The position numbers were made by a program, and so were the translations under genes. Positions 417-24,159 of a stretch of DNA of 64,000 nt are shown piece by piece. The first letter of the stretch is position 1; each line of letters opens with the position of its first letter. The notes beneath the pieces were generated by a model, which ran no database searches, had not been told where the DNA came from, and saw only the letters and a list, made by a program, of their open reading frames with translations. The stretch lies in the NCBI GenBank assembly GCA_965218425.1, contig OZ244621.1, forward strand, positions 2,279,369 to 2,343,368. The letters run 5' to 3'. The DNA comes from an uncultured Candidatus Binatia bacterium (GTDB lineage Bacteria; Desulfobacterota; Binatia; UBA9968; CAXXLF01).

Positions 417-741
417 ACAAAACAAGACGGGCCGCACGTCTATACTTGACGCGTCGTCAAGCATTTCTATGTTTTATCAATATCTTCCATCTCTTCAAAG
501 GAACTCGTTTTGCAGGAAAACAAGCTAATATGCTGAAAATGCCTTTGAATGCCTTTTTCTTAGCTATACTAATCTACTTGTTCTTCTAATTGTTCTTACT
601 GATTCAATGATCCGGGTAAATCTGCGGTTAAGGCTCTTTACGCCTTTAGTGTCTCGGCGCGAAAAACTTTGTGGACCGGTGTTGTTGAGGATTCCATGGG
701 TTAAGATCCAACAGGTCAGGGGAGCAGTGAATTTTTCCGGT

Positions 742-1785
742 TTATTTCTTGGCAGTGAAGATCAGGGTCTTCGGGTAATGGTCCACCCAACCGAACCAGA
801 AGGAGGGGGTGACAGGTACGGCCTCCAACCTTTGACCTTTCATTTGACCCTGAACGGCCTTTCCCGTTAGCCCATTCCACACGGAGCCGGTTGTGTCGTC
901 GGTAAGAAAGGTGCCTTTGTAGTTTTCCGGCTGCGTCTTCTTGAATGTAAGAACCCGGTCTTTCACCTGGCGTTTAAACACCATCCCCGTCGCGCTGTCC
1001 TTTTCGAAGACCGCAAGAATTGGGATCCCTTGGAATACGTCATTGACCACCGGCTGCTTGCTCAGGACGGAATAGGGGTAAGCCTTCGCTTTTCCATCGA
1101 TCACTAATCCAAGTACGTATTCTTTGGGATAGACCCTCTTATCAGACAAGCGAGTGGGAATAATCCCCGTGTCTGCGGAACTATAGTATGATTCGTAAGG
1201 GTCCCGTCCCAAGCTGAGGGGAAAAGGCCGTCCACTGGTTAAAACCTTGGAGTCCGGGTAGAGTCCCATCCAGGTCCCCCAACGAGTAAACGTGGATTCC
1301 ATGGGTTTGAGCTTGTTCCCGTCCATTGGGCCTTTGACCGCCGCTCCCACCAGGTGGCTCCAGAGGCTGTCCGTTTGGTGGTCGTACATTATCAGAGAAT
1401 TGGCATGGAGTTTCCCTGAGACCCCAAAGGTCAACTCCTTGTCTGCGATTCTACGGTCATACACGATGGCCGTATAACAGAGGGGTCACCAGGTGACCGC
1501 GATGGGTATGCCGCCAACTTTGTCGTTGACGATTTCAACCCGGCTCAGTGTGGCTACGGGGTAGGCGCGACTGTCCCCATTGATTTCCACACCGATGACG
1601 GATTCGTCCGCCTTGAGCCATTGGGCACTTTTGCCGTCCTGGAACTCGGGGGAGAGGATGGCCGCAATGGCATCCTTGGCCAGGACGGTAATAATCTCAT
1701 TCGGACGAAGGTCTGCCGCATGAGAATGATTTGGCAGGAATAGTAAGACCAACAGGATCAGCCATAGGGGAAGACAGTATTTCAA
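742..1785 (-). CDS. DUF3179-family secreted protein with in-frame TGA (candidate selenocysteine, W-U-P-L-C; alternatively a pseudogene)
   Basis: Two adjacent minus-strand ORFs (1486..1908 and 742..1464) are in the SAME frame separated only by TGA at 1483-1485 (...IAVTW-TGA-PLCYTAIVYDRR...). N-terminus has a signal peptide from a TTG start at 1785 (MKYCLPLWLILLVLLFLPNHSHA). An ATG at 1908 is an alternative start. Confidence 0.55.
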
Positions 1786-1798
1786 TGGGCCCTCTTGT

Positions 1799-2644
1799 TT
1801 AGCTCTGGATAGGTTTGGAAGCGGACCGGGCGAGGTGCAGGAGCTCCTGGATGGGTCTCTTGGAAACCAGAAGGCAGATTCGTTCTCCCATGCGGTGCAT
1901 GACCCCATTTATCCCATCGTTGGAGAAAGTATAAAAACTGACCTTTCTCTCCGGATCAAAGAGCCTGCGGGCTTGTGGTGGAGCGTCTTGTTCCGTGCCG
2001 AGAAAGGTAAAACAACTGACAGAAGGACCGGTGCCCTCGTACACGGCAATGAGGATATCGCGATTGCCGACTTCTTTGACCGTGCCGCCGACGGCCTTTA
2101 ATCCCGCGGAGGATAGATCATAACCCATTGGCGCGAATTTGCCCTCCATGGCCTGGTGCAATTGGTTTTTAATTGCTGATGGGCTTTCGGCTCGGACAAA
2201 GGAAAGGTCGCCTGAAGCAATCTGTGCATGCGCCTCTATGGCTGCCAGAGGCATAGGCTGACCGGTCGGCCAGGTCAGGTAAAATAAAGGGACGAGCAGT
2301 AAAATCAGTGCGGCCGATGCAAAGGCGGGGCGGGTGATGAAATTGGGTGTCCGGGAGAACCCTTTACAACCTTGGGTTGGTTCGGTGGCCTGAGGTGAGA
2401 TATGGTGATCCGCGAGGATCTTTGCTCTGAGATCGGAGGGGGCGGACACTTTGGCGCCGATGGAAAAGAGCTGTTTTTTGAGCTCCTTTTCCTGCTCAAA
2501 TACGGTTTGACAGTTCACGCAATTTTTTAGATGGCTCTCTATGGCCTGTCGCTCGAGGTCATTTAGTTCGCTATCCGCTAGAGCGGTTATAAGCTCCTCG
2601 GCCTCTTTACAAGTCATTTCCGTTACTTTCCTTCCTCCATGCAC
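1799..2644 (-). CDS. anti-sigma factor (zinc-finger HxxxCxxC N-terminal domain, one TM segment, periplasmic C-terminal domain)
   Basis: N-terminal ...MTCKEAEELITALADSELNDLERQAIESHLKNCVNCQ (putative zinc-finger anti-sigma motif), central hydrophobic segment. Likely true start at the internal Met near 2617. Confidence 0.6.
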   Translation of the reverse strand: MHGGRKVTEMTCKEAEELITALADSELNDLERQAIESHLKNCVNCQTVFEQEKELKKQLFSIGAKVSAPSDLRAKILADHHISPQATEPTQGCKGFSRTPNFITRPAFASAALILLLVPLFYLTWPTGQPMPLAAIEAHAQIASGDLSFVRAESPSAIKNQLHQAMEGKFAPMGYDLSSAGLKAVGGTVKEVGNRDILIAVYEGTGPSVSCFTFLGTEQDAPPQARRLFDPERKVSFYTFSNDGINGVMHRMGERICLLVSKRPIQELLHLARSASKPIQS

Positions 2645-2834
2645 AATAGCTATAACCTATACAACGTCGTTCCTACCCCAGGAGTTCCCGAAATATTACC
2701 CCTTTACGGCGGCAAATCGATATCATAGCTCTTGGATGATCCGGGTGATTGTGGTAAGGGGTCTCTTCGTTCCGTGTCTTGTCCTAGAAAATATTCTGCA
2801 CGGAGTCTTGCACGATGACAAGGGGAGAAAGTTT

Positions 2835-4205
2835 ATGACCACGAAATACGATGCCATCGTTATCGGTACAGGCCAGTCGGGCCCTTCCCTGGCCGCGCGG
2901 ATGGCGGGTGAAGGAATGAAAGTTGCCATCATTGAACGCAAGTCGTTTGGTGGCACCTGCGTTAATACCGGTTGAATACCCACCAAGACCCTGGTGGCCA
3001 GTGCCCATGCCGCTCACATTGCAAGGCGTGGGGCTGAATACGGGGTGATGATCGGCGGGCCGGTCACCGTGGATATGAAAAAGGTCAAGGAGCGTAAGGA
3101 CAAGGCGGTGCAGCGGTCCAATCAGGGAGTGGGCAATTGGGTCAAGAACCTGAAGAACGCTAAGGTTTACGAAGACCACGGGCGGTTCGAGGGACCCCAC
3201 GCGGTGCGTGTGGGAGGGGAGCTCATAGAGGCGGATAAGATTTTCATCAATGTCGGCGCGCGCGCGTCGGTAATGGACCTCCCTGGGGTAAATTACTTCA
3301 CCAATTCGAGCATCATGGAGGTGGATTTTCTCCCAAAGCACCTGATCGTGGTCGGCGGAAGCTACATCGGCCTGGAGTTTGGTCAGATGTACAGACGCTT
3401 CGGCAGCGAAGTGACCATCGTGGACCGTGGGCCTCGGTTGACCCAGCAGGATGATGAGGACACTTCCCTGGCGATCAAGGAGATTTTGGAAGCGGAGGGG
3501 GTGAACGTTCGGCTCGAAGCTGAATGTATTTCTGCTGCGCAAAAGGGCGATCAGATCACCGTCAATTTGGACTGCAAAACCGGAGGTAAGGAGGTAACGG
3601 GTACCCACCTGCTGCTCGCCATCGGACGGCGTCCCAACACGGACGACCTGGGCATAGATAAAGCAGGCCTCGAAGTGGATCGGCGGGGGTACATCAAGGT
3701 GGACGATCGGCTTCAGACCAACGTGCCTGGAGTTTGGGCCATTGGGGACTGCAATGGCAAGGGAGCCTTCACCCACACCTCGTATAACGACTATGAAATT
3801 GTTGCGGCCAATCTGTTCGACGACGACCCACGCCGGGTCAGCGACCGAATTTTAACCTATGGGATGTTTATCGATCCGCCCCTCGGACGCGCGGGAATGA
3901 TCGAAGATGCAGTGAAAAAATCAGGCCGCAAAGCGTTGATAGCAAAGAGGCCCATGACTCGTGTGGCGCGCGCCGTGGAGAAAGGCGAGACACAGGGATT
4001 TATGAAGATCTTGGTGGATGCCGAAACCAAAGAGATCCTCGGGGCCGCCGTCCTTGGTGTTGGTGGCGATGAAATCATTCATTCCATCCTGGATGTGATG
4101 TACGCCAAGGCGCCCTGCACGGTTATTCAGCGGGCTGTCCACGCCCACCCAACGGTGTCGGAGCTGATACCCACCATGCTGGGGGACCTGAAGCCGCTGG
4201 AGTGA
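2835..4205 (+). CDS. FAD/NAD(P)-dependent pyridine nucleotide-disulfide oxidoreductase (mercuric reductase / RclA-like class I) with selenocysteine at the redox-active site (GGTCVNTG-U-IPTK)
   Basis: ATG 2835 preceded by AGGGGAG RBS. GxGxxG FAD motif (VIGTGQSG). In-frame TGA at 2973-2975 sits exactly where the second Cys of the conserved CVNxGCIPSK disulfide motif is expected, and the frame continues uninterrupted to 4205 with a second Rossmann motif and the C-terminal HAHPTxSE dimerisation signature. A 7-bp hairpin lies at 2979-2998, just 3' of the TGA. Confidence 0.8.
2979..2998 (+). promoter_or_regulatory. hairpin immediately 3' of the Sec-TGA of the oxidoreductase (candidate bacterial SECIS core)
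   Basis: CCCACCA-AGACCC-TGGTGGG-like 7-bp stem / 6-nt loop at 2979-2998. Confidence 0.4.
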
Positions 4206-4359
4206 TGTGTCCTTCGCTTGGGCAAATGAGCATCAGGGCAAGCCCATCAATTATGAACGGCTAATCTGGACCCTTCCGCGGCTGGTACAGTGCTTGTACG
4301 TGTTTCGACCAGTTCGCAAGATGGATGATGCATGCCCCGGGCTGAGACCCGGGAAGTCT

Positions 4360-4950
4360 TCATTCTCGCTTTTTCCCGCCTTGTTTAACCTCTTCCACCA
4401 TGTAGCATCGTAGGTATTGGTGAAGGTATTTTCTACCCCGGGAAAGTCTGGAGCGAATGGTTCCCAAGGGGCATGAGAGCACCTCCGAGGCCTCTGCATA
4501 TGAAAGCTCTCCCATGTCCACCAGTACAATGGGCGCTCTAAATTCTTCAGGGATTTTGGTCAGGGCCTCATTGACCTTGACGCTCAATTCTTTAGTGTAG
4601 ACATTGTCTTCCGGCCCTGGCTCCGGTCCCGGAAGCGTCTCCCAATAATCTAAGCCCTCTTCGTCCCAGAGACCCCGTCCTTCCACGGCCGCCCATCTTC
4701 TCTTCCTGTGGTGGTGATCGAGAAAAAAGTTATAGAGGATCCGACTCAGCCACGCCTTCAGGTTGGTTCCAGGGGTGAACTGTTCGAATGAATCAAGGGC
4801 ACGTAGATAGGCTTCTTGGACAAGGTCTTGAGCTTCCTGAGGGTCCCTCGATAGGTGTAGGGCAACTCGATAAAGGTGATCGAGGTGTTGCAGCGCCTCT
4901 TGGGCGAAGCGCTCTCTCCCGGCTTTGGTGTTTTTGCCCCTCCGTATCAC
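4360..4950 (-). CDS. ECF (RpoE-like) sigma-70 family sigma factor
   Basis: 196 aa; region 2 (YLRALDSFEQF...AWLSRILYNFFLDHHHRKRR) and region 4 HTH (ELSYAEASEVLSCPLGTIRSRLSRGR). Confidence 0.85.
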   Translation of the reverse strand: MIRRGKNTKAGRERFAQEALQHLDHLYRVALHLSRDPQEAQDLVQEAYLRALDSFEQFTPGTNLKAWLSRILYNFFLDHHHRKRRWAAVEGRGLWDEEGLDYWETLPGPEPGPEDNVYTKELSVKVNEALTKIPEEFRAPIVLVDMGELSYAEASEVLSCPLGTIRSRLSRGRKYLHQYLRCYMVEEVKQGGKKRE

Positions 4951-5310
4951 GCGGCCATTCTAGCTGAGGGGATGGCCCGTGTCTACTTACTTAAATAGTG
5001 GTTCAGGTTTCGAGTCCACCACACCCGTGGGCCGATTCCCTCTGGGGAAGAGTTCCCACGGGCTCTACGACGTGGTGGGAAACACCTTTAGAGTGGACCT
5101 CCACGCCCGGAGAATAGTTTTGAAGGGATGTTCCTGGGATGATTTACCCGGCGCCTGTGGGGCGGCGCAAAAAACCGGAGGCGGCGGGAAGTGGGTTTAT
5201 CCGGGTTGAAGTGGGTTGATGCGGGCTGACGGAACGAAGATGTTGATTTTGACTTGCCGCGAGATTGCTGATATTACCGAAATCAATCTGGTCGTATCGA
5301 AGAGGCGTCT

Positions 5311-6273
5311 ATGCAGAGCTTCGCTGAGAAAATAAGACAAAGCGGCGACAGCTTCCTCAAGCGCAAGGTGGAAACCCTGCAGGTTAACATGGGGAAGTAC
5401 TGCAACCAGGCATGCCTGCACTGTCACGTGGAGGCGGGACCCACCCGGAAGGAAATCATGACTCTGGAAACGGTAGAGTCGGTGCTCCGTTTCCTCGAGA
5501 AGTCCGATGTGCCCACAGTGGACATCACGGGGGGCGCGCCGGAGCTCAACCCGCATTTCGACTACCTCGTGGAGCGCAGCGTCCAGCTTGGCCGCCACGT
5601 GATGGACCGATGCAATCTCACCGTCATCTTTGAACAGGGGAAGGAGTATCTCCCGGACTTCTTTCAAAAAAACCGGGTGGAGCTGATCTGCTCTCTTCCC
5701 TGCTACACAGAGGGGAACGTAGACCAACAGAGGGGCAAAGGGACCTTCAATCTGAGTATCCGGGCGCTGCGGCTTCTGAACGGCCTGGGATATGGAGTCG
5801 AAGGCACGGGTCTGGAGCTGCAATTGGTCTATAACCCGGTGGGGGCTTACCTTCCGTCGCCCCAGGAACGATTGGAACAGGACTATAAGACTATCCTCAA
5901 GGAAGAATACGGCATCGTTTTTAACCATCTCTACTGTCTTACCAATGTGCCCATCACTCGATTTGAGACCTTTCTGAAGGTGCGAAACGAGTATGACCGG
6001 TATATGGAGCTGATCCAGTCCGCGTTCAACCCGGATACCGTGGACAAGGTCATGTGCAGAAACATCTTGAGCGTAGGATGGGAGGGGTCCGTTTACGACT
6101 GTGACTTCAATCAGATGCTGGAGCTGCCGGTCTCGAACCGACAGGGTAAGCCGCTAAAGATCCAGGACCTCCATGCCGATGGCCTGGAAAATCAATCAAT
6201 CGTGGTCGGAAATCACTGCTACGCCTGTACGGCGGGAGCCGGGAGTAGCTGCGGCGGTTCATTAATAGCGTAA
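5311..6273 (+). CDS. arsS: arsenosugar-biosynthesis radical SAM (seleno)protein ArsS family, Cys form
   Basis: CNQACLHCHVEAGP radical-SAM cluster motif, DITGGAPELNP, CDFNQMLEL, and the family-specific C-terminal HCYACTAGAGSSCGG tail. No in-frame TGA here. Confidence 0.8.
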   Translation: MQSFAEKIRQSGDSFLKRKVETLQVNMGKYCNQACLHCHVEAGPTRKEIMTLETVESVLRFLEKSDVPTVDITGGAPELNPHFDYLVERSVQLGRHVMDRCNLTVIFEQGKEYLPDFFQKNRVELICSLPCYTEGNVDQQRGKGTFNLSIRALRLLNGLGYGVEGTGLELQLVYNPVGAYLPSPQERLEQDYKTILKEEYGIVFNHLYCLTNVPITRFETFLKVRNEYDRYMELIQSAFNPDTVDKVMCRNILSVGWEGSVYDCDFNQMLELPVSNRQGKPLKIQDLHADGLENQSIVVGNHCYACTAGAGSSCGGSLIA

Positions 6274-6275
6274 CC

Positions 6276-6345
6276 GCCGCTTTGCGCTGATGGTAAAACG
6301 CAAAGCGCATGGCGCTATACGCAAAGCGTCTTTTCAGTGACGGGT
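6276..6345 (+). terminator. hairpin-rich putative terminator / repeat element downstream of arsS
   Basis: CCGCTTTGCGC...GCGCAAAGCG inverted repeats (two nested stem-loops) followed by TCTTTTC. Confidence 0.4.
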
Positions 6346-6652
6346 TACGAGTACCGAGTGGAAATTGAGGGTGGGTCAAGGGTGTAGTGAAGTCCGCACT
6401 GTCAACCCTCCACTCCCTAACCTGACCCTTAAACACTTTCCACCGGCTACACCGTTTTCTGCTTACTGCGATCTTCATACGGTTTTCTTTGGCGTCTTGG
6501 CGCGAAAAACTCTTTTGAATTCGTTCTTTTAAAGAATTGATGGGTAGAATTCTAACGGCAAGGCGGGGCCGTGCAGGTCAGGCAGTGAGATTGAGGCGCC
6601 TAGACCCGGCCCCCCACAGGACCCGCAATTCGTTTGGGTTTTGCTCAGCTAG

Positions 6653-6847
6653 ATGGTAAATTACCCCATGGCTGATACATTCCTAAAGCGCAAGAAGGAG
6701 CAGGATCGGCAGAAAAAAAAGAGGGAAAAAGAGGCCATGCGACAGGACCGTAAAGCGGAAAAAGCGAATCGTAGGCCCCTGACTCCAGGCGAAGACCCTG
6801 ACATCGCGGGGATCAAGCCCGGCCCTCAACCGCCGATCGACTGGTAA
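6653..6847 (+). CDS. small highly basic hypothetical protein (64 aa, Lys/Arg/Glu-rich)
   Basis: ORF only; composition resembles small nucleic-acid-binding proteins; no recognisable family. Confidence 0.25.
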   Translation: MVNYPMADTFLKRKKEQDRQKKKREKEAMRQDRKAEKANRRPLTPGEDPDIAGIKPGPQPPIDW

Positions 6848-7012: not shown

Positions 7013-8317
7013 TCAGGCGCTATCCTCTGCTTTACTCTGCTTCCGATCCGACTCCAGTGACGCCAGCGCCTCCTTTACCAGCTTGCGCCGTAATTCTTTC
7101 TCTTCCTCGCCCGTCAGGTTTGCCGCGCCGGTGACGTGGACTATGCCGTTGCCCAAAACGACGCGGTTGGAACCGACCATCTTTGCAATGGGCATGGCCG
7201 AGGTAATCTGGACCACCGGGATGCCCGCCTTTTCCAGCTCGGTTGATATCGCAGCTCCGCTGCGAGTGCTCGTTCCTCAGGTGGAGGTGAGGATGACGGC
7301 GTCGACCTCCTCCCGCTTCACTTTTTCGGCCATCTCCCTGCCCAGGCGCCGCGTGTTCGAGAGCGGGTTCGATAGACCAGATGTGGAGATGAACTCGTGG
7401 TGGAGTTTTCCGATCCTGCCGCTTCTTTCCATCTCGCGCATGGCGTCGAGGGGCACGAGACGGTCCGGATCCTGTTGAACGAATCTCGGATCATAGCCGC
7501 CGTGAGAGATCTCGTAGTCCTCCCCCCTGAGATCATCCCGGCCGTCGATGCTATAGGAGCCCCACCGGGTGGCGGCTTGTCCTTCGATTTTGTCCGGGTT
7601 GCCCTTCGGAACGAGGCCGCCGTCGGTGATGAGCATGACCTTGGCCTTCGAAAGATCCCCCACGGCGGAGGGCATGGGAACCGGTTTAAAGGAAGTCGGC
7701 AACATCTCAGACTCGAAGGGCTCTCCTTTCACTTTCGTCAGGAGCATATCAACGAGCCGGACGGCGGCCGTCCGATCCGCCAGTTGATCGCGCAGGATAC
7801 CCCGGGAAAGGTAGCCTTCCTCTGCGGGCAGCCCGATGGACTTACCGTGGACGAGCTTTCCTCCCAGACGCGCCATTTTGGTTAGGACTTGCCGCATCTT
7901 GGCGGGGCTCGCACCCGAATTCACGATATAGAGCGCTTCCCGGTTGAGATCCGCCCCCGGGTTCTCGCTGCCCATCCCGGTAACGACGGGAATCCCCAGG
8001 TTGGACTGAACGGCGGCGCAGAGGGACCCCGCCGCCATCCCATATCGACCCGCTTCGAAGCAAGGACCGGCAACGAACAGCTCTGCACCCGCCTCCCGGA
8101 CCTTTGCCAGCACCGCGGCCGTCAACTCCTCCTGGTGTTCCACGGCATGGTTGTCTCCGGAAATGAGGGTCATAACCACACGTGAGCCATCGCCCAGCAG
8201 TTGTTCCAACAGCCTCCCCGGTCCTACGGCCCCCTCACGCGCCTCAAGGGGCATGCCCGCCTGCTCCTCTCCCCCGACTCCGCCGAAAAACTGATTCAAA
8301 TAGTGTACGATTCGCAT
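7013..8317 (-). CDS. grdB: glycine/sarcosine/betaine reductase component B selenoprotein (GrdB family) with in-frame Sec codon
   Basis: N-terminus MRIVHYLNQFFGGVGGEE...GPCFEAGRYG...GIPVVTGM matches GrdB. ORF 7277..8317 ends in TGA (7277-7279) in context EEVDAVILTST-U-GTSTRSGA, and the 67-aa ORF 7013..7216 is its in-frame continuation (...IPVVQITSAMPIA...EEEKELRRKLVKEAL). Confidence 0.85.
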
Positions 8318-9751: not shown

Positions 9752-10219
9752 TTATCCGTCGGCGAGCCCGGAGCGAACCTCCCGCATCGCCGTGGCGATA
9801 GCCTCGGTTTCCACTGCCATCTCGATCAGGCCCACCTCGTCGGCGTAGGTCTCGGGGTCCACCTGCTCCTTGATCTCGGGCTCGGTGATGTGGAAGACGG
9901 GGAGTTTCAAGCCGACGCCGCCGAGCGCTCCCGCCCAGGTCGGATCCCCATCGGTCATGGTCAGGCCGAACAGTTTGCTGCTCTCTGCGGTGGGAGTTCC
10001 GAGAAGGACAACGACACCGGCAGTCCCCGTGGCGTCTACCTTCCGTTTGATTTCTTCTTGACCTTCCAGGTCAAGCGCGCCCGACGCCGTTCAGACGAAA
10101 CAGTGGGTGAGTTCAAGGATGACTTCGGCGCCCGCGCTTTTCGCGCAAAGAGCGATGGAGTTGCCTTGAACGCCGTCTCTTTCTCCCAGAACAATGACTT
10201 TCTTCCCGTTCAGCTTCAT
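9752..10219 (-). CDS. grdA: glycine reductase selenoprotein A (GrdA) with in-frame Sec codon
   Basis: ATG at 10219 with GGGGG RBS. Translation MKLNGKKVIVLGERDGVQGNSIALCAKSAGAEVILELTHCFV-U-TASGALDLEGQEE... closely matches GrdA (…TECFVUTAAGAMDLE…). TGA at 10091-10093; 155 codons. Confidence 0.9.
10057..10075 (-). promoter_or_regulatory. hairpin 3' of the grdA Sec-TGA (candidate SECIS)
   Basis: CUUGACC-UGGAA-GGUCAAG perfect 7-bp stem, 16 nt downstream of UGA on the mRNA. Confidence 0.5.
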
Positions 10220-10402: not shown

Positions 10403-11854
10403 TTAGTTTTTCGGGTTACGCTCCAATACAAAGGATAATCCGTCCGCCATCTGAGTCATGCGGCCTAAAAACAGGCTCCCTTTGGCCAAGAACATGGCTC
10501 GATCCATAGCCCCCGACACGATACGGTCCACTGCGTGCCCCAGGAAAGGGATCGCCGAGGCGATATGGCCCTGAGTCGGGGCATAACCGGGCATTCCGTG
10601 TGTTTCCGCAAAACTTGAAATCTCGTTAGGGGCGATCTCTTTGTTCCGCGCCGCCAGGGCGGCGATAAGCCTGTAGTTCGTCAACGGAACGTTGCCGTTT
10701 CCGGACGGTTCCGTCACCTCCGGGTTGTGCAGCTCGGTGGCGTACTTGTCGATATCCCCGAAGCGCAATTTTAGTTTCTGCAGCGGCTCGGCCACCAGTG
10801 AGCCGAAGACGGCCTGCTGGCTCGAGCCGGCACCCACCCGGTGCATACCGACGGAATCCAGCCTTAGCCAAGGATGTTTCCCGTCGTCCCCGGAGACGTG
10901 GATGGCAACTCCCGCCAAAACATCCTCCAAGACCGGTTGTTCGTGTTTGAGATGGCCTTGAAACTTCATCCCGAGTTTCGCCAGAGAGCCGCCCCCGACG
11001 ACCACCACATTGCGGAACACACCCGCGCTCACGAGGCTGCCGGCCAGCAGCAAAGCATGGTTCGGACCCGAGCAAAAGCCTTTGACGTCGACCCCGCTCG
11101 CCATGGAGCACCCGCACATTTCCCCGATGGCCTTCGCCAGGTTTCCTCCGCCGCGCTGGTAACGGTCGCCCACCGCCTCCTCGCCGCTGTTTAGAACATA
11201 ATCAATGGCAGCGGCCTGTGCGCCTTCACCCTTCAGGAGCGTCTTCAGGGCCACTACCGCCGTCGCCTTGCAGGCCAGGTTCTCGAGGAGAATGTCGGGC
11301 GCAAGGGAGCGGTCCTCCCGATCGCCCGGCAGGACGCAGCCCACCAATTGCCCGTCCCGCAGATTGAGGGGGAGCGCGGGCGACGGACCGTCGATCCGAG
11401 CCTCGATGGCGGAGAGCGGCTTGCCGTCGTTGAGGTTCGCGGCTTCCACCTTCCCGAAGAGCGGATGGAGTTCCAACGCCCGCCGCGCCGTCCCGAGAAA
11501 ACCTTCCTCGAGCCAAAGCAGCCCGAAGAGATCGCAGAGCTTCATGACGGCGTAAAACTCCTCTTCCGGCATGAATTCACCATGCCGTTGCCGCCGTTCC
11601 GTATCCTGTCTCACGGCAAACCAGGGCCGTTGGAGGGATTTCAGTTCATCGGGGTAGATGGATCCTAGAAATACCCGGTTCGGCGGATAGGACAAAGCGT
11701 CCTCGAAGGAACGGAGCCGCTCCCGAATTCGTTCGCTTACCGCCGCTTCCCGGACGATTTCACGCGCCGGTTTCGAGCCGTGGGTGACAAGTCCGGGCGT
11801 ATGAGATAAAAAGTAGCGAACGGCCTTGATGACTGGTTGATTTCCCGGGGGCAT
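10403..11854 (-). CDS. grdC: glycine reductase complex component C-like protein (GrdC-like, beta-ketoacyl-synthase-like fold)
   Basis: 483 aa; size and context (immediately upstream of grdA-grdE-grdB) fit GrdC. Assignment GrdC versus GrdD is from size only. Confidence 0.5.
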   Translation of the reverse strand: MPPGNQPVIKAVRYFLSHTPGLVTHGSKPAREIVREAAVSERIRERLRSFEDALSYPPNRVFLGSIYPDELKSLQRPWFAVRQDTERRQRHGEFMPEEEFYAVMKLCDLFGLLWLEEGFLGTARRALELHPLFGKVEAANLNDGKPLSAIEARIDGPSPALPLNLRDGQLVGCVLPGDREDRSLAPDILLENLACKATAVVALKTLLKGEGAQAAAIDYVLNSGEEAVGDRYQRGGGNLAKAIGEMCGCSMASGVDVKGFCSGPNHALLLAGSLVSAGVFRNVVVVGGGSLAKLGMKFQGHLKHEQPVLEDVLAGVAIHVSGDDGKHPWLRLDSVGMHRVGAGSSQQAVFGSLVAEPLQKLKLRFGDIDKYATELHNPEVTEPSGNGNVPLTNYRLIAALAARNKEIAPNEISSFAETHGMPGYAPTQGHIASAIPFLGHAVDRIVSGAMDRAMFLAKGSLFLGRMTQMADGLSFVLERNPKN

Positions 11855-17527: not shown

Positions 17528-17636
17528 AAGAGATTAGCTGAGGGAGATCCCAAACCGAAGGCGACCTCGCTTACGTTGATTCCCTCCGGGCTATTTGCAA
17601 ACGGCAATAAGGCAAGCCTGCCCCCTCCAAGTCGTT

Positions 17637-20633
17637 TCAGGCCTCGGGCCGTTCGTACGTCAGACCGAACACCGTGTCCGTCATCCAACGCCGAAAAGAC
17701 TCGTTGTCCATGAACTGCTTGAAAAGCTCGGTGTCGTCCTTGAGCACGGCCGTCATCACGCGCGCCAATGCCTTATCGTGCTCGATACGGGCGTTCTGCT
17801 TGTCGGAGTTCCGCTTCGCGTTCCGGTAGGCCGTGTCCGCCGCGACGCGATTCGGGATGTCCTCGGTGATCAGCCTGTGCACCCGGTCCGAGTCGGTCCA
17901 CCGGATATTCCCGAACATCTCGTTGAAGGTCTTGAGGATGTTCGAGAGGCGGTCGAGTTCGGGTTCAGGTTTACGGCCGCCGCCGCCGGCCGGCACCGGC
18001 CCGATCTCGGCTTCCTCGTCCGGCAGTCGGACCTGCATCGCCGCCTTCTTCTCGACCCGGTAGCTGTCCATGTCGATGGACTCAAGGATGCCTCTGGACA
18101 GATCCTCTTCCACGGGCGCGGGGAGCTTCGGCACGAGGAAGTTCAGGAAGATGGAGAGCCTCTCCCACTCGGCGTTCGTGTAGGGCAGGATAGCGGCGAG
18201 GAAGTCGTACGCGCGCCCGAACGCCTTGGCCTTGCCCTTGAAGTCCACCTGCCCGTCCTCGTCGAGCTGCTCCCTGTAATGCGCAACGCAGGCGTCGAGG
18301 ATGGGGTCGAGCCGGTCGCGGTCGGCCCCACCGAGGTAGAGCGTCACGAGCCGGTCGATCTCCGCGTCGGCATAGACCTGGTAGCCGTCGAGGGCGGCCT
18401 TGAGGTCGTGCAGCTTGTTGGGATCGGTCTCCTCGCTCAGGATCGTCGTCCGGTAGTAGTCGGCGAACGCCGCTTGGATGGTGTTGGCATCGTTCATGAA
18501 GTCGAGGACGAACACGTCGTGTTTCTGCGGGTGCGCCCGGTTGAGACGCGACAGCGTCTGGACCGCCTTGATCCCGGACAGGACCTTGTCCACGTACATC
18601 GTGTGCAACAGCGGCTCGTCGTACCCGGTCTGGAACTTGTCGGCGCAAATGAGGAACCGATACGGGTCCTGCCGGATCTCGTCGGCGATCCGCCCGGGCG
18701 GGAAGCCGTTGAGGGACGCCTCACTGACCTTACCCCCGCCATACTCGTGCTCGCCCGAGAAGGCCACGATGGCCTGATACGGGCTCCTGCGCTCCAGGAG
18801 GTACTGCCGGATCGCGTGGTAATACTGGACCGCGCGCTCGATGCCGCCCGTCACCACCATCGCGCGGGCCTTGCCGCCGATCTTGTGGAGCGCCAGCACC
18901 TGTTCGTGGAAGTGGTCCACCATGATCTCGGCCTTGAGCCGGACGGCATGGTCGTGGCTCTCGACGTAGCGGCGCAGCTTCTTGCGGGCGCGCTTGGTGT
19001 CGAACTCGGGATCACCCTCGATCTTCTTGACGAGCTTGTAGTAGCTCTCGACCGGCGTGTAGCGCCCGAGCACGTCCAGGATGAAGCCCTCCTGGATCGC
19101 CTGCTTCATGGTGTAGCCGTGGAACGGTCGGCGCCTGGTCTTCCCGCCCGCGTCGTACGCTTCGCCGAAGGTCTCCAGCGTCTTGTTCTTGGGCGTGGCG
19201 GTGAAGGCGAAGTAGCTCGCGTTCGTGAGGAGCTTCCGCGCGTCCATGATGCGGTTGATCATGTCCTCGGCGGTCTCGTCCTCCTCCTCGGCGCCCGCCT
19301 CGGAGAGCGCCATGTTGAGCGCTGCCGAGGTCCTGCCGCCCTGGCTGGAATGCGCCTCGTCGATGATGATGGCGAAGCGCCGGCCCCGCTGCTCGTTCCC
19401 GATCTCTTCGAGGATGAACGGGAACTTCTGCACCGTCGAGATGATGATCTTCTTGCCGCTCTCGATAAACGCGCGGAGGTCGCCCGAGCGTTCGGCGTGA
19501 CCGACGGTGGCCCCGACCTGGGCGAACTGCTTGACCGTGTCGCGGATCTGCTTGTCGAGGATGCGCCGGTCGGTTACCACGATGATGGAGTCGAACGCCT
19601 CCGCGCCGTCTTTCCTGAGCCCGATCAACTGGTGGGCGAGCCAGGCGATGGAGTTGGACTTCCCGCTGCCGGCCGAGTGCTCGATGAGATACCGTTTCCC
19701 TGCGTCGTGCCGGCCGACGTCCGCCAAGAGGTTCCGCACCACGTCGAGCTGGTGGTAGCGCGGCCAGATCTGCACCGCACTCCTCTTGCCCGTCTTCTCA
19801 TCCTTGGCCTCGACGACCTGCGCATAGTTCTCCAGGATGTCGGTCAGCCCGTTGCGGGTAAGCAGGCGCTTCCAGAGGTAGTCGGTCTTGAGGCCGTTCG
19901 GGTTGGGCGGATTGCCCGCGCCGTCGTTCCAGCCCAGGTTGAAGGGCAGGAACCACGAACCCTTGCCCTTGAGGTGCGTGCAGAACCGCACCTCGTGGTC
20001 GTCCACCGCGAAGTGCGCCACGCAGCGGCCAAACTCGAAGAGCTTCTCGCGCGGGTCGCGGTCGCGTTTGTATTGCTGGACGGCGTCCTCGACAGTCTGC
20101 TTGGTGAGGCTGTTCTTCAGCTCGAAGGTGGCTACCGGCAGGCCGTTGATGAACAGGCCCAGGTCGAGAGCGAGCTGCGTCTCGTCGCGGCTGTAGCGGA
20201 GCTGGCGCGTGACCGAGAAGCGGTTCTGGGCGTAGCGTTCAGCGGCGAGGGGGTTGCCGGGAGACGGCGCGCCGTAGAAGAGTTCGGCGTGATGCGGCCC
20301 GTCCTTGACCCCCTTGCGGAGCACGTCGATGACGCCGCGCTTGCCGACCTCGCCTTGAAGACGCGCCAGGAACTTGCGCCGCGTCGGGCCGTCCTCTTCC
20401 AGGGCGAGCACCTCGGACGCCTTCGGTTGCGTCTCCCGCAGGAACTCCGAGAGCTGGACCAGGTCCACGCAATACTCCCGGTCGTAGTCGTTCGGGTTGC
20501 CGCAGATCCAGCCGGCGCCATAGGCGGCCGGACGCTCGCGCACCACGCCCGCTTGCGCCGGATCGCAGGGGGCTCCCGTCAGAGCCGCGCAGATGAGGCT
20601 TTCAAGTCCCTTCTCGCCGGTGTCGGTGGTCAC
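17637..20633 (-). CDS. hsdR: type I restriction-modification system endonuclease subunit R (HsdR)
   Basis: 998 aa; N-terminal endonuclease region, helicase motif I (HSAGSGKSNSIAW), DEAH box (IIDEAHSSQ), motif VI region; full length for the family. Confidence 0.9.
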   Translation of the reverse strand: MTTDTGEKGLESLICAALTGAPCDPAQAGVVRERPAAYGAGWICGNPNDYDREYCVDLVQLSEFLRETQPKASEVLALEEDGPTRRKFLARLQGEVGKRGVIDVLRKGVKDGPHHAELFYGAPSPGNPLAAERYAQNRFSVTRQLRYSRDETQLALDLGLFINGLPVATFELKNSLTKQTVEDAVQQYKRDRDPREKLFEFGRCVAHFAVDDHEVRFCTHLKGKGSWFLPFNLGWNDGAGNPPNPNGLKTDYLWKRLLTRNGLTDILENYAQVVEAKDEKTGKRSAVQIWPRYHQLDVVRNLLADVGRHDAGKRYLIEHSAGSGKSNSIAWLAHQLIGLRKDGAEAFDSIIVVTDRRILDKQIRDTVKQFAQVGATVGHAERSGDLRAFIESGKKIIISTVQKFPFILEEIGNEQRGRRFAIIIDEAHSSQGGRTSAALNMALSEAGAEEEDETAEDMINRIMDARKLLTNASYFAFTATPKNKTLETFGEAYDAGGKTRRRPFHGYTMKQAIQEGFILDVLGRYTPVESYYKLVKKIEGDPEFDTKRARKKLRRYVESHDHAVRLKAEIMVDHFHEQVLALHKIGGKARAMVVTGGIERAVQYYHAIRQYLLERRSPYQAIVAFSGEHEYGGGKVSEASLNGFPPGRIADEIRQDPYRFLICADKFQTGYDEPLLHTMYVDKVLSGIKAVQTLSRLNRAHPQKHDVFVLDFMNDANTIQAAFADYYRTTILSEETDPNKLHDLKAALDGYQVYADAEIDRLVTLYLGGADRDRLDPILDACVAHYREQLDEDGQVDFKGKAKAFGRAYDFLAAILPYTNAEWERLSIFLNFLVPKLPAPVEEDLSRGILESIDMDSYRVEKKAAMQVRLPDEEAEIGPVPAGGGGRKPEPELDRLSNILKTFNEMFGNIRWTDSDRVHRLITEDIPNRVAADTAYRNAKRNSDKQNARIEHDKALARVMTAVLKDDTELFKQFMDNESFRRWMTDTVFGLTYERPEA

Positions 20634-20651
20634 GCTATCCCTCTTCCATCT

Positions 20652-20969
20652 TCAGATCGGGACCTCTCTCAGTTCACCGGGGCGTATTTCGTCAAGGACA
20701 GTGCGATTCTCTTCTATCCGCGGCTGGATATAGGGCCATGCCGTGGACAGCAGGACGACAATCGCCAGTCGCCTATCTGTGAGATTCCGCTGGTATCGCA
20801 TATTCTGGTCAGTGGTGATGAGGACTTCGTAGCCTTCCTGCTCGGCCTCCTCAACCAAGTCTCCATTTCCGAGTCCTGACTATCCTTGCTCCGCTGCCGT
20901 ATCCACCGAGTGTCCGTGCAGATGCCCTCGAAGCGGCTTAGGCGTTCCCTGGTCGAATAGAATCTTCAC
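20652..20969 (-). pseudogene. DUF5615-family (PIN-like, toxin-like) gene with premature in-frame TAG
   Basis: Minus-strand translation from a GTG overlapping the DUF433 stop: (M)KILFDQGTPKPLRGHLHGHSVDTAAEQG-TAG-SGLGNGDLVEEAEQEGYEVLITTDQNMRYQRNLTDRRLAIVVL... matches DUF5615. The TAG at 20880-20882 falls where family members carry a conserved Trp (TGG). The supplied ORF track lists the distal part as '+', but the + strand there encodes only the antisense read-through of hsdR. Confidence 0.65.
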
Positions 20970-22891: not shown

Positions 22892-24159
22892 TGACCTTGC
22901 CCCCTAAAACGAGTCCAGGTGAAATGTTAGGGATTTTGATTTTAGGAAGGAGGCAAGGATGGCAAGAAAGCGATTTACGGCCGAGCAGATTATCCTCAAG
23001 CTGCGTGAGGCGGAGGTGAGCTTGGCCCAAGGGAAGGCGGTGGGCCAGGTGTGCAAGCAGGTGGGGGTAACCGTGCAGACCTACTACCGGTGGAGGAAGG
23101 AATATGGAGGCCTGAAGATGGATCAGGCCAAGAGGCTCAAGGCCTTGGACAAGGAGAATGCGCGGTTGAAGAAGCTGGTGGCGGATCTATCGCTGGACAA
23201 CCAGATCCTGAAGGAAGTGTCCTCGGGAAACTTCTAGGCCCGGCGAAGAGGAGACGAGCGGTGATATGGGCCAGAGAAAGATTGGGACCTGATCGAGTCT
23301 CCGAACGCCGGGCTTGCCAAGTGTTGGGACAGCCGCGATCGACGCAACGAAGAGTCCGAGAGATCCCGGAAGAGGAAGCAAGACTAGTGGCTCGGATGAT
23401 GGAGCTGGCCAGCGAATACGGGCGATACGGCTACCGGAGGATTACGGCCATGCTGCGTGGGGAGGGGTGGAAGGTCAACCACAAGCGAGTGGAGAGGCTC
23501 TGGAGGCAGGAAGGGCTGAAAGTCCTCAGCCGTCAGCCTAAGCGAGGGAGGCTCCGGTTGACTGATGGCTCCTGCATTCGCCTGAGACCGGCGCATCGAA
23601 ACCATGTGTGGAGTTATGACTTCGTGCACGAGCGAACCGAAGACGGTCGGGCCTTTCGGCTGTTGAGCATCCTGGATGAATACACCCGGGAGTGCTTGGC
23701 GATTGATGTGGCCAGACGGATGAATCACCGGGATGTGCTGGAACGGTTAGCGGAGCTATTCGTGGAACGGGGCGTGCCGCAGTCCCTTCGGTCCGACAAT
23801 GGCCCCGAGTTTACGGCTCAGGCTATCCGGGACTGGCTCAAGGCCATTGGTGTCAGGACACTCTACATCGAGCCTGGCAGTCCTTGGGAGAATGGCTACG
23901 TGGAGAGTTTTAACGGAAAACTCAGGGATGAGCTGCTCAACCGGGAGGTGTTTGAAACCCTGAGGGAAGCTCAGGTGCTGATCGAAAGATGGAGAAGAGA
24001 GTATAACCAGCGGCGGCCTCACAGCGCCCTGGGCTATCGTTCTCCGGCACCGGAGGCCTTTCTGCCCAGAGCGCAGGCTGGGAATTCATCCCCATGGGCT
24101 GGACTCCAGATAATTCCGGCTCTAACTTAAAGGGTGGTACCACTCCTGGGGGCAGGTCA
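22892..24159 (+). mobile_element. IS3-family insertion sequence (orfA HTH plus orfB DDE integrase), 1268 bp, imperfect terminal IRs TGACCTTGCCCCC / GGGGGCAGGTCA, 4-bp target-site duplication ACAG
   Basis: orfA 22959..23237 ([20 protein letters not shown]...[18 protein letters not shown]); overlapping orfB 23051..24130 in the -1 frame with the DDE core (…[10 protein letters not shown]…DNGPEFT…[20 protein letters not shown]…). TSD ACAG at 22888-22891 and 24160-24163. Confidence 0.85.

Follow-up and report, generated by a model that had tools for sequence, protein, structure and literature searches.

A split ECF sigma/anti-sigma module among selenoprotein genes of Candidatus Binatia

Why should the genes for an extracytoplasmic function (ECF) sigma factor and its likely anti-sigma factor be parted by a selenoprotein gene on the opposite strand, and do the selenoprotein genes around them form one regulon? 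These questions are raised by a locus of an uncultured Candidatus Binatia bacterium (GenBank assembly GCA_965218425.1, contig OZ244621.1), which occupies positions 742 to 6273 of a stretch of 64,000 nucleotides. The whole stretch was analyzed and is called the window in the following; coordinates given without a locus number refer to it. ECF sigma/anti-sigma pairs are co-transcribed, positively autoregulated modules. At this locus, the original prediction had listed genes for a DUF3179 protein with a putative selenocysteine (Sec), an anti-sigma factor, a Sec-containing oxidoreductase, an ECF sigma factor, and an ArsS-family radical SAM protein and, together with the nearby grdA and grdB, had suggested an envelope-stress or redox regulon that includes selenoproteins. 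All five genes were found in this order and at these places, with small coordinate corrections. The sigma and anti-sigma genes are indeed not adjacent but parted by the Sec-oxidoreductase gene, which runs in the opposite direction, and close relatives have kept this order. We consider it probable that the locus represents an ECF module of the ZAS (zinc-binding anti-sigma) type, the canonical operon of which was rearranged in one group of Candidatus Binatia such that the ECF-type promoter, P_ecf, now precedes the anti-sigma gene and the Sec-containing DUF3179 gene.

The sigma gene (4360-4950, minus strand; 196 aa, GTG start) encodes an ECF (group 4) sigma-70 factor as judged by its domains, which are sigma2 and sigma4 only. 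Sigma70_r2 was matched with 59.3 bits, Sigma70_r4_2 with 46.7 bits, and TIGR02937 with 88.2 bits (cutoff 42.9), and regions 1 and 3 gave no match. The score for the actinobacterial SigH/SigR subfamily TIGR02947 was 132.1 bits, below the cutoff of 251.55, so that the protein is not a member of it. The anti-sigma gene (1799-2617, minus strand) encodes a membrane-anchored protein of 272 aa, which belongs to the ZAS factors by its zf-HC2 domain (PF13490, 37.4 bits, cutoff 22.2). It is not a member of the RsrA equivalog TIGR03988, as its score of 41.3 bits is below 62.5 and it has 272 aa and a transmembrane helix. An alignment of 26 homologues revealed that C3, H29, C33, and C36 are invariant, which corresponds to an H-x3-C-x2-C motif and an upstream zinc ligand. 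The single transmembrane helix (about residues 97-115) is followed by an extracytoplasmic C-terminal domain of about 150 aa with the invariant residues C202 and C248. AlphaFold modeled this domain as a compact alpha/beta fold (pLDDT about 90). No Pfam or NCBIfam family matched it, and a Foldseek comparison with the PDB gave weak RseB/MucB and roadblock-like matches (E about 2e-3, TM-score 0.25-0.5). The start at 2644 that had originally been assigned is an upstream GTG of the mechanically called open reading frame (ORF); the true start is 2617, and all homologues (n=60) begin with MxC.

The anti-sigma family was collected and aligned, loci (numbered with the prefix L) were obtained by exact-protein look-up and a scan of species-representative genomes, and gene orders were determined by tblastn. 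A sigma orthologue was found directly upstream of the anti-sigma gene in 39 of 39 loci outside the clade of the window (L006-L009, L011-L045). These outgroup loci are from Binatia and 'Deltaproteobacteria' metagenome-assembled genomes, a few of which are labeled Syntrophobacter, Verrucomicrobia, or Acidobacteria. In the four loci in which the junction was read (L006-L009), the stop codon of sigma and the start codon of anti-sigma share the sequence ATGA. The sigma factor of the window is 49-68% identical to outgroup sigma factors that adjoin an anti-sigma orthologue, and no further ECF sigma or anti-sigma paralogue is present within the 64-kb window. Because the two genes stand side by side in all relatives outside the clade, gene order identifies the two factors as true cognate partners, as had been predicted from the window alone.

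The split arrangement was found only in the window (identical to L001 and L002), L003/L010, L004/L005/L075, L056, L057, L064, and L076, and thus in at least six independent assemblies, which come from ENA, NCBI, JGI, and Logan. The anti-sigma factors of the window and of its split-carrying close relatives are 70-79% identical. Between P_ecf and the anti-sigma ATG, a stretch of about 25 nt from the 3' end of the sigma coding sequence has been retained, which includes a purine-rich ribosome-binding sequence and ATGA. In the window, this relic is the leader of the anti-sigma gene (2618-2643, minus strand) and contains the Shine-Dalgarno-like sequence GGAGGAAGGAAAG followed by ATGA. Local alignment to the sigma 3' and anti-sigma 5' ends of the outgroup loci L006, L011, and L012 supported its origin. 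In L004, the corresponding stretch reads ATAGAGGAAGGAAGTAGCGGAAATGA, compared with the sigma end AAAGAGGAAGGAAAAGGCAAAAATGA in L006. In L056, the relic is a 17-nt direct repeat of that locus' own sigma 3' end, with 16 of 17 bases identical. The sigma stop codon is still contained in ATGA(AG), where the start of anti-sigma once overlapped it. L003 and L056 have a decayed P_ecf copy before the sigma gene; in L003, the -35 element GGAACT and the TTTTAT following the -10 element are kept, and the spacer is shortened. In the derived clade as a whole, only about 43 nt with a sigma-70-like element are retained upstream of sigma. The relic of the sigma 3' end and the decayed P_ecf indicate that the promoter and the junction are each, or once were, present twice. 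The split represents a rearrangement of the canonical ECF sigma/anti-sigma operon that is specific to this clade.

In the ancestral order, which 39 relatives show, P_ecf and a sigma-70-like promoter at the GTG are followed by sigma, ATGA, anti-sigma, and in some cases DUF3179. In the simplest reading, the unit comprising P_ecf, the sigma-70-like promoter, sigma, and ATGA may first have been duplicated in tandem; the sigma body would then have been lost from the second copy, P_ecf of the first copy would have decayed, and the oxidoreductase gene would have been placed between the copies in the opposite orientation. We infer this order of duplication, loss, decay, and insertion from the relics. 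The present order is sigma-70-like promoter, sigma, hairpin, convergent Sec-oxidoreductase, P_ecf, sigma 3' relic, anti-sigma, and DUF3179(Sec). One relative carries two tandem sigma/anti-sigma pairs of this family (L017, 329-3621), which indicates that duplication of the unit, the proposed first step, does occur. The GC-rich hairpin between the convergent sigma and oxidoreductase genes (CCCGGG-CUGAGA-CCCGGG, 4336-4353) keeps its stem with altered bases in L003 (CCATGGG/CCCGTGG) and L056 (CCCCGGGG/CCCGGGG) and is a probable bidirectional terminator.

In the outgroup loci, P_ecf has the consensus TnCGGGAACTTT-N-G-AAA-CCGTTnTA and is located 55-125 nt upstream of the sigma gene. In the window, it is located 45 nt upstream of the anti-sigma ATG (2653-2696, minus strand), with the -35 element GGGAAC (2689-2684) and the -10 element CGTT (2666-2663), and it is found at the same site in L003, L004, L056, L057, L064, L075, and L076. 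For its detection, a weight matrix of 44 nt was trained solely on 27 outgroup promoters upstream of sigma. The matrix recovered P_ecf in 8 further outgroup loci outside the training set (scores 26-47), and each derived locus yielded one strong match (scores 21-33), always upstream of anti-sigma. When both strands of the 64-kb window were scanned, the sole hit was 2696-2653 (minus strand) with a score of 33.0, and the runner-up scored 10.6. As a control, 100 random 64-kb sequences with the dinucleotide transitions of the window were scored; the mean of the maximum scores was 10.1 (sd 2.8), and the top score was 16.4. The matrix found nothing above 10.6 upstream of the oxidoreductase (2835), sigma, ArsS (5311), or grd genes, and no P_ecf-like motif was detected on the oxidoreductase strand. 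Of the two places originally named for a search for ECF-type promoters, the one before anti-sigma has a match, and the one before the oxidoreductase has none. P_ecf before the sigma gene, which characterizes ECF autoregulation, is present in the outgroups and missing in the window and its clade.

The sigma gene of the window has kept only the sigma-70-like promoter TAGACA-N17-TAGAAT (4957-4985, minus strand), which ends 6 nt before the GTG. An independent consensus scanner returned this element as the best sigma-70-like match in 600-6700, with 10 of 12 positions. In the form T(G/A)GACA-N17-TA(G/C/A)AAT it is kept in 33 of 41 family loci, and the -10 element ends 6-9 nt before the GTG, which has no Shine-Dalgarno sequence. 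Because the promoter abuts the GTG and a Shine-Dalgarno sequence is lacking, the sigma mRNA is probably leaderless.

Which genes would then depend on this sigma factor? The start of DUF3179 is located 13 nt past the anti-sigma stop, and this short gap behind P_ecf makes anti-sigma and DUF3179(Sec) the predicted sigma-dependent unit; they are the only genes in the window for which such a dependence is predicted. DUF3179 is found directly downstream of anti-sigma also in L006, L011, and L012, and within about 5 kb upstream in L009, L020, L023, and L027; altogether, it shares a predicted transcription unit with the pair, or lies close to it, in about 11 loci. ArsS lies less than 10 kb from the pair in 8 other loci (L004, L008, L010, L025, L027, L029, L030, L045). 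This repeated linkage makes DUF3179 and ArsS recurrent associates of the module, which the oxidoreductase is not. In relatives, weaker P_ecf-like sites precede a Pro-rich protein, 'p145', and small secreted proteins. Another P_ecf-like site, with 16-nt spacing, is located in L003 and L004 before a minus-strand cluster that encodes p145, a CarboxypepD_reg protein, a BNR propeller, two c-type cytochromes, an FGE-sulfatase, and, at its end, ArsS. The suggested regulon with selenoproteins is therefore retained for DUF3179(Sec), which stands behind P_ecf, and not for the oxidoreductase, ArsS, and grdA/grdB, as the window has a single matrix site. The same division emerged from the synteny comparison: the oxidoreductase is unlinked in relatives, being absent at the locus in 39 of them, and DUF3179 is not.

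Gene identities, synteny, repeats, relics, and motif positions are direct results of the sequence comparison. From them, we infer promoter activity, leaderless translation, and the following regulatory consequence. The sigma factor would be made constitutively from its probably leaderless mRNA. The anti-sigma factor would hold it via the cytoplasmic Zn/thiol ZAS domain (C3/H29/C33/C36) and would span the membrane once, such that the extracytoplasmic domain with its two cysteines (C202, C248) is the likely input. Released sigma would activate P_ecf and thereby only the synthesis of its own inhibitor and of DUF3179, a secreted, periplasmic UxxC selenoprotein. The outcome would be negative feedback without positive autoregulation; with the sigma-dependent promoter left on the inhibitor alone, the feedback is predicted to dampen only and no longer to amplify. 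The Sec-oxidoreductase, ArsS, and grd genes would be neighbors, not demonstrable members of the regulon. Recurrent periplasmic cytochromes, DUF3179, and the thiol motifs point to an envelope redox cue as the signal.

The DUF3179 gene (742-1785, minus strand; 347 codons, TTG start, signal peptide) is a clear member of its family (PF11376, 283.9 bits, E 2e-84). Its in-frame TGA (1486-1488) is part of W-U-PLC, a UxxC motif, and Cys homologues read W-C-PLC. Among the 120 best database matches, 117 are post-TGA fragments, i.e. Sec forms, and the remaining three are full-length and read W-C-PLC. A SECIS-like (Sec insertion sequence) hairpin with GU in its apical loop, UACGGCCAUCGUGUAUGACCGUA (1452-1475, minus strand), begins 12 nt after the UGA; it is near-invariant at the nucleotide level, synonymous sites included, in 9 distinct loci, the proteins of which are about 68-87% identical. 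DUF3179 is catalogued as a UxxC/T selenoprotein family (PMC9312934, PMC13188914). A solved structural relative was not found by sequence. Just past DUF3179, a gene for a Fic/DOC (death-on-curing) toxin was observed, preceded by a small partner ORF (39-416; L001 12202-12803), and further along the contig, after the Fic/DOC gene, a TonB-dependent receptor.

The expectation of at least three and probably four Sec codons within 10 kb was borne out, as four in-frame TGA codons lie within 8.6 kb: those of DUF3179 and the oxidoreductase, one in grdB (7277-7279), and one in grdA (10091-10093), where it is part of CFVU, a canonical CxxU motif. The genetic code is standard, because the sigma and oxidoreductase genes themselves end in TGA as a normal stop codon. 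A tRNA scan of the window yielded no tRNA-Sec gene and no match at all, an Rfam scan of the window at gathering thresholds yielded nothing, and sel genes were not among the ten large window ORFs that were sampled. The canonical grdA (CFVU) and DUF3179 Sec genes in the window represent indirect support for a Sec machinery in this genome.

The gene between sigma and anti-sigma (2835-4205, plus strand) encodes the Sec form of a class I FAD (flavin adenine dinucleotide) pyridine-nucleotide disulfide oxidoreductase. It matches NF004992, 'FAD-containing oxidoreductase', with 775.3 bits (cutoff 629), Pyr_redox_2 with 209.7 bits, and Pyr_redox_dim with 76.5 bits, and the C-terminal motif HAHPTVSE is present. 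MerA, Lpd, and RclA were rejected as identities (309.6 bits, below 454.45; 352.9 bits, below 408.8; and 323.7 bits, below 740, respectively). The C-terminus, GDLKPLE, is devoid of the C-terminal Cys pair of MerA, and the nearest solved structures are Lpd and RclA-type enzymes. The in-frame TGA (2973-2975) is found in GGTCVNTG-U-IPTK, such that the redox pair reads CVNTGU, with U for the second C of CxxxxC. The second Cys of this pair serves as the flavin-proximal charge-transfer thiol in glutathione reductase, lipoamide dehydrogenase, and MerA. The Sec in CVNTGU presumably sits at the same flavin-proximal position, which makes its location unusual.

Of 113 full-length close homologues, which are 73-78% identical, 111 carry Cys at the position of the TGA. 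Comparison of four lineages yielded ratios of synonymous to nonsynonymous codon differences from 10:3 to 17:7 in the 46 codons upstream of the TGA and from 102:39 to 185:43 downstream of it; purifying selection on both sides indicates that the gene is read through the TGA. Automatic gene calling breaks it up, with one piece of about 46 aa and another of 385-403 aa. A pattern scan of metagenomes yielded 20 contigs (L058-L077) with C-V-N-x-G-TGA-I-P-T-K. About 16 of these 20 encode proteins that are 60-75% identical to that of the window, outside any sigma/anti-sigma context. In a neighbor-joining tree, the Sec forms made up at least four groups, with Cys forms interspersed among them; because the tree was unbootstrapped, the number of switches between Cys and Sec is uncertain. 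An origin of the Sec form in this clade alone was rejected, as the scan and the tree show it in at least four clades. Downstream of the oxidoreductase UGA, stable local folds were predicted (-23.9 kcal/mol, z -2.04), and one other Sec-form clade has, by inspection, a textbook GGUC-loop hairpin. Comparison of the upstream flank with those of three Cys-form orthologues revealed no similarity and pointed to no donor locus. Upstream of the gene (2750-2800, plus strand), the block TTGTGGTAAGGGGTCTCTTCGTT is strongly conserved.

The selenoprotein family tables of PMC9312934 and PMC13188914 (2022 and 2026) contain no CxxxxU flavoprotein disulfide reductase; the FAD enzymes listed there are of the CoA-disulfide-reductase type and type III sulfide:quinone reductase. 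In L055 (5001-10001), an orthologue of the oxidoreductase lies beside a DinB_2/FGE-sulfatase protein (EgtB/SenA-like), a glycosyltransferase, and a Methyltransf_33 protein (EgtD-like), a neighborhood that resembles an ergothioneine/selenoneine-type cluster. A DUF427/NTP_transf_9 gene is also located beside this orthologue, and a possibly related ORF of 259 aa is found in L063 (1-780) and L066. These neighbors may hint at the substrate of the oxidoreductase.

The ArsS gene (5311-6273, plus strand; TIGR04167, 442.8 bits, cutoff 300, full-length match, plus DUF3641) is, as had been noted, a Cys form that ends in GSSCGG, and no methyltransferase gene such as arsM is adjacent. Its position next to sigma was clarified by comparison with L010 and L004. 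The window is colinear with L010 over two segments: 6267-4991 corresponds to L010 2792-4109 (ArsS, the spacer, and the last about 93 codons of an FGE-sulfatase gene), and 4993-4300 corresponds to L010 7631-8322 (the sigma-70-like promoter and sigma). Relative to L010, 3.5 kb are missing from the window, and relative to L004, 6.0 kb; the lost segment comprised most of the FGE-sulfatase gene, the cytochromes, the Pro-rich p145, and a multihaem c552-like gene. The junction is located at about 4991-4993 and is followed by the FGE-sulfatase 3' remnant, a pseudogene fragment (4991-5209, plus strand). The ORF 4979-5209, which covers it, has no Pfam hit on its own and is 57% identical to the C-terminus of the intact genes in L004 and L006. 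In the minus-strand cluster of L004 and L010, ArsS follows the FGE-sulfatase gene. ArsS thus adjoins sigma because 3.5-6 kb were deleted, and the deletion also cut it off from its former upstream operon. ArsS is recurrently linked to sigma/anti-sigma elsewhere, and the direct adjacency is a product of the deletion. Other indels in the ArsS-sigma interval differ among L003, L004, and L010, and the interval appears to be a rearrangement hot spot.

Several points weigh against a rearranged module with P_ecf on anti-sigma and DUF3179. Every promoter described here is a motif prediction, and the phylum has no characterized promoters. The pattern GGGAAC-N16-18-CGTT, which occurs once in the window, is found at least once in 41% of shuffled sequences; because this simple pattern is not significant and only the 44-nt matrix discriminates, the matrix was used in its place. 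A second sigma-70-like site, TTGTCA-N17-CAGAAT (2821-2793, minus strand), lies inside the oxidoreductase leader and could feed anti-sigma. The oxidoreductase, for which no promoter was found, may depend on sigma via a divergent motif. RNAalifold found no consensus SECIS structure across 17 Sec-form oxidoreductase sequences. Lastly, the multi-step duplication model is one among several possible paths to the same end state.

How do other explanations compare? The finding would be an artefact if the genes with in-frame TGA were pseudogenes disrupted by nonsense mutations, or if the split had arisen from wrong assembly of a metagenome-assembled genome. Automatic gene callers break both genes at the TGA and the sources are metagenome assemblies, as this explanation would have it. 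However, order and TGA codons are repeated in independent ENA, NCBI, JGI, and Logan assemblies, synonymous changes far exceed nonsynonymous ones on either side of the TGA, homologues have Cys at the aligned position, and DUF3179 is an accepted selenoprotein family. We therefore rejected this explanation as extremely improbable. The whole neighborhood, i.e. DUF3179, the oxidoreductase, ArsS, and grdA/B, might instead form one envelope-stress or redox regulon of the ECF sigma factor, and this could account for the location of DUF3179(Sec) behind P_ecf, the proximity of ArsS (within 10 kb of the pair in 8 other loci), the P_ecf-like motif with 16-nt spacing before the ArsS-ending clusters of L003 and L004, and the order grdE-grdB-ArsS, which is kept in L010. 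The sole matrix hit in 64 kb speaks against it, as scores did not exceed 10.6 before 2835, 5311, and the grd genes; furthermore, the oxidoreductase is absent at the locus of 39 relatives, its Sec form occurs in unrelated contexts, and a promoter that served ArsS was removed by the deletion. We regard a single regulon of this extent as improbable.

A functional role of the oxidoreductase gene in the module would be another explanation for its place. ZAS systems are reset by disulfide reductase systems, as is known for SigR-RsrA. By analogy with thioredoxin reductase in the SigR-RsrA loop, the enzyme might have been captured as a partner that re-reduces, at the expense of NAD(P)H, the ZAS anti-sigma factor or a small thiol or selenol that is monitored. 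The insertion is retained in at least five diverged lineages with the TGA and its flanks under purifying selection, and the oxidoreductase and P_ecf have a divergent control region of 217 bp in common that is 85% conserved, both of which would fit a partnership. In contrast, no P_ecf match is present on the oxidoreductase strand, orthologues are common in varied, unrelated contexts, and co-location in a single clade may be neutral hitch-hiking. A partnership of this kind appears rather unlikely, although it is less remote than a single regulon. In the broadest form of this idea, the CxxxxU enzyme, as an uncatalogued selenoprotein form of the flavoprotein disulfide reductases with selenium at the flavin-proximal position, would have been recruited in this clade as a working partner of sigma/anti-sigma that resets the anti-sigma thiol switch or reduces a monitored low-molecular-weight (seleno)disulfide; together with DUF3179, it would form a selenium-dependent redox-stress circuit with rewired feedback, sigma being made constitutively and induction being confined to the inhibitor. 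To this version we likewise give little credence. The reading that we prefer thus remains a rearranged ECF module with P_ecf on anti-sigma and DUF3179(Sec).

Beyond the module, several observations concern the grd and ArsS genes. The order grdE-grdB-ArsS in L010 marks the grd genes as stable neighbors. The GrdB-like protein reads LTST-U-GTSTRSG, with Ser after Sec, where UxxC would have Cys; the GrdB motif is given as UxxC in PMC13188914. A DUF5940 protein (10403-11854) occupies the place in the grd cluster expected for GrdC/D. In L008 (1-8245), ArsS is accompanied by two methyltransferases, a PHO4 transporter, a DAO-type flavoprotein, and a VTT-domain/Pyr_redox fusion, and the ArsP permease beside this cluster was called in two pieces (130 and 192 aa) and may be recoded or broken. 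ArsS is paired with a 30%-identical Pyr_redox paralogue also in L025, L029, L030, and L045. Elsewhere in the window, an rve-family integrase, the transposase of an IS element, was found about 17 kb from the locus (23051-24130), and an ORF of 1094 aa without Pfam match (17595-20879) as well as one of 998 aa on the opposite strand.

The CxxxxU flavoenzyme form is not in the current selenoprotein catalogues (PMC9312934, PMC13188914). The relics permit a near base-by-base reconstruction of a natural operon rearrangement. The conclusion that a cluster of selenoprotein genes equals a regulon was too broad and has been corrected, as promoter evidence ties only DUF3179 to the module. Replacement of Cys by Sec within the CxxxxC of a widespread FAD disulfide reductase family is seen in several soil-metagenome clades. 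If confirmed, the CxxxxU form bears on the tuning of flavin-thiol chemistry by selenium and on annotation, since such genes are now split into two ORFs.

Lastly, the locus was compared with known systems. Among the NCBIfam models, the sigma factor comes closest to SigH_actino and the anti-sigma factor to RsrA, and the SigR-RsrA and SigH-RshA systems (ECF12-type, with a zinc-binding anti-sigma factor, responding to thiol-oxidative stress) share with the module the invariant Cys and H-x3-C-x2-C of the anti-sigma factor and the promoter type GGAA(C/T)-N17-18-(C)GTT, which is autoregulatory in the ancestral arrangement. However, the window proteins score below both family cutoffs (132 versus 251.6 and 41 versus 62.5), the anti-sigma factor is, unlike RsrA, membrane-anchored with an extracytoplasmic domain of about 150 aa and two invariant cysteines, and the sigma factor of this clade has lost its autoregulatory promoter. 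In its architecture of an N-terminal zf-HC2 domain, one transmembrane helix, and an extracytoplasmic domain, the anti-sigma factor resembles RsiW (SigW of B. subtilis) and RslA (SigL of M. tuberculosis), and JGI labels several homologues 'anti-sigma factor RsiW'; past zf-HC2, however, there is no sequence similarity to either. ArsS agrees with the arsenosugar radical SAM proteins of TIGR04167 that occur with ArsM, both in the full-length match and in the C-terminal GSS(C/U)GG motif, but it is a Cys form without adjacent arsM, whereas L008 has an adjacent methyltransferase. The DUF3179 protein itself does not differ from its family in domain, UxxC motif, or Cys homologues, and only its context beside a sigma/anti-sigma pair is new. 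The oxidoreductase shares the FAD/NAD(P)H disulfide-reductase superfamily and Sec redox chemistry with mammalian thioredoxin reductase and with the TIGR03385 selenoprotein (CoA-disulfide reductase/NADH oxidase-like), the Sec form of which is included in the tables of PMC9312934 and PMC13188914. In thioredoxin reductase, Sec is part of the C-terminal GCUG tail, and in TIGR03385 enzymes it replaces the single active-site Cys, whereas in the enzyme of the window it is the second residue of the N-terminal CxxxxC pair.

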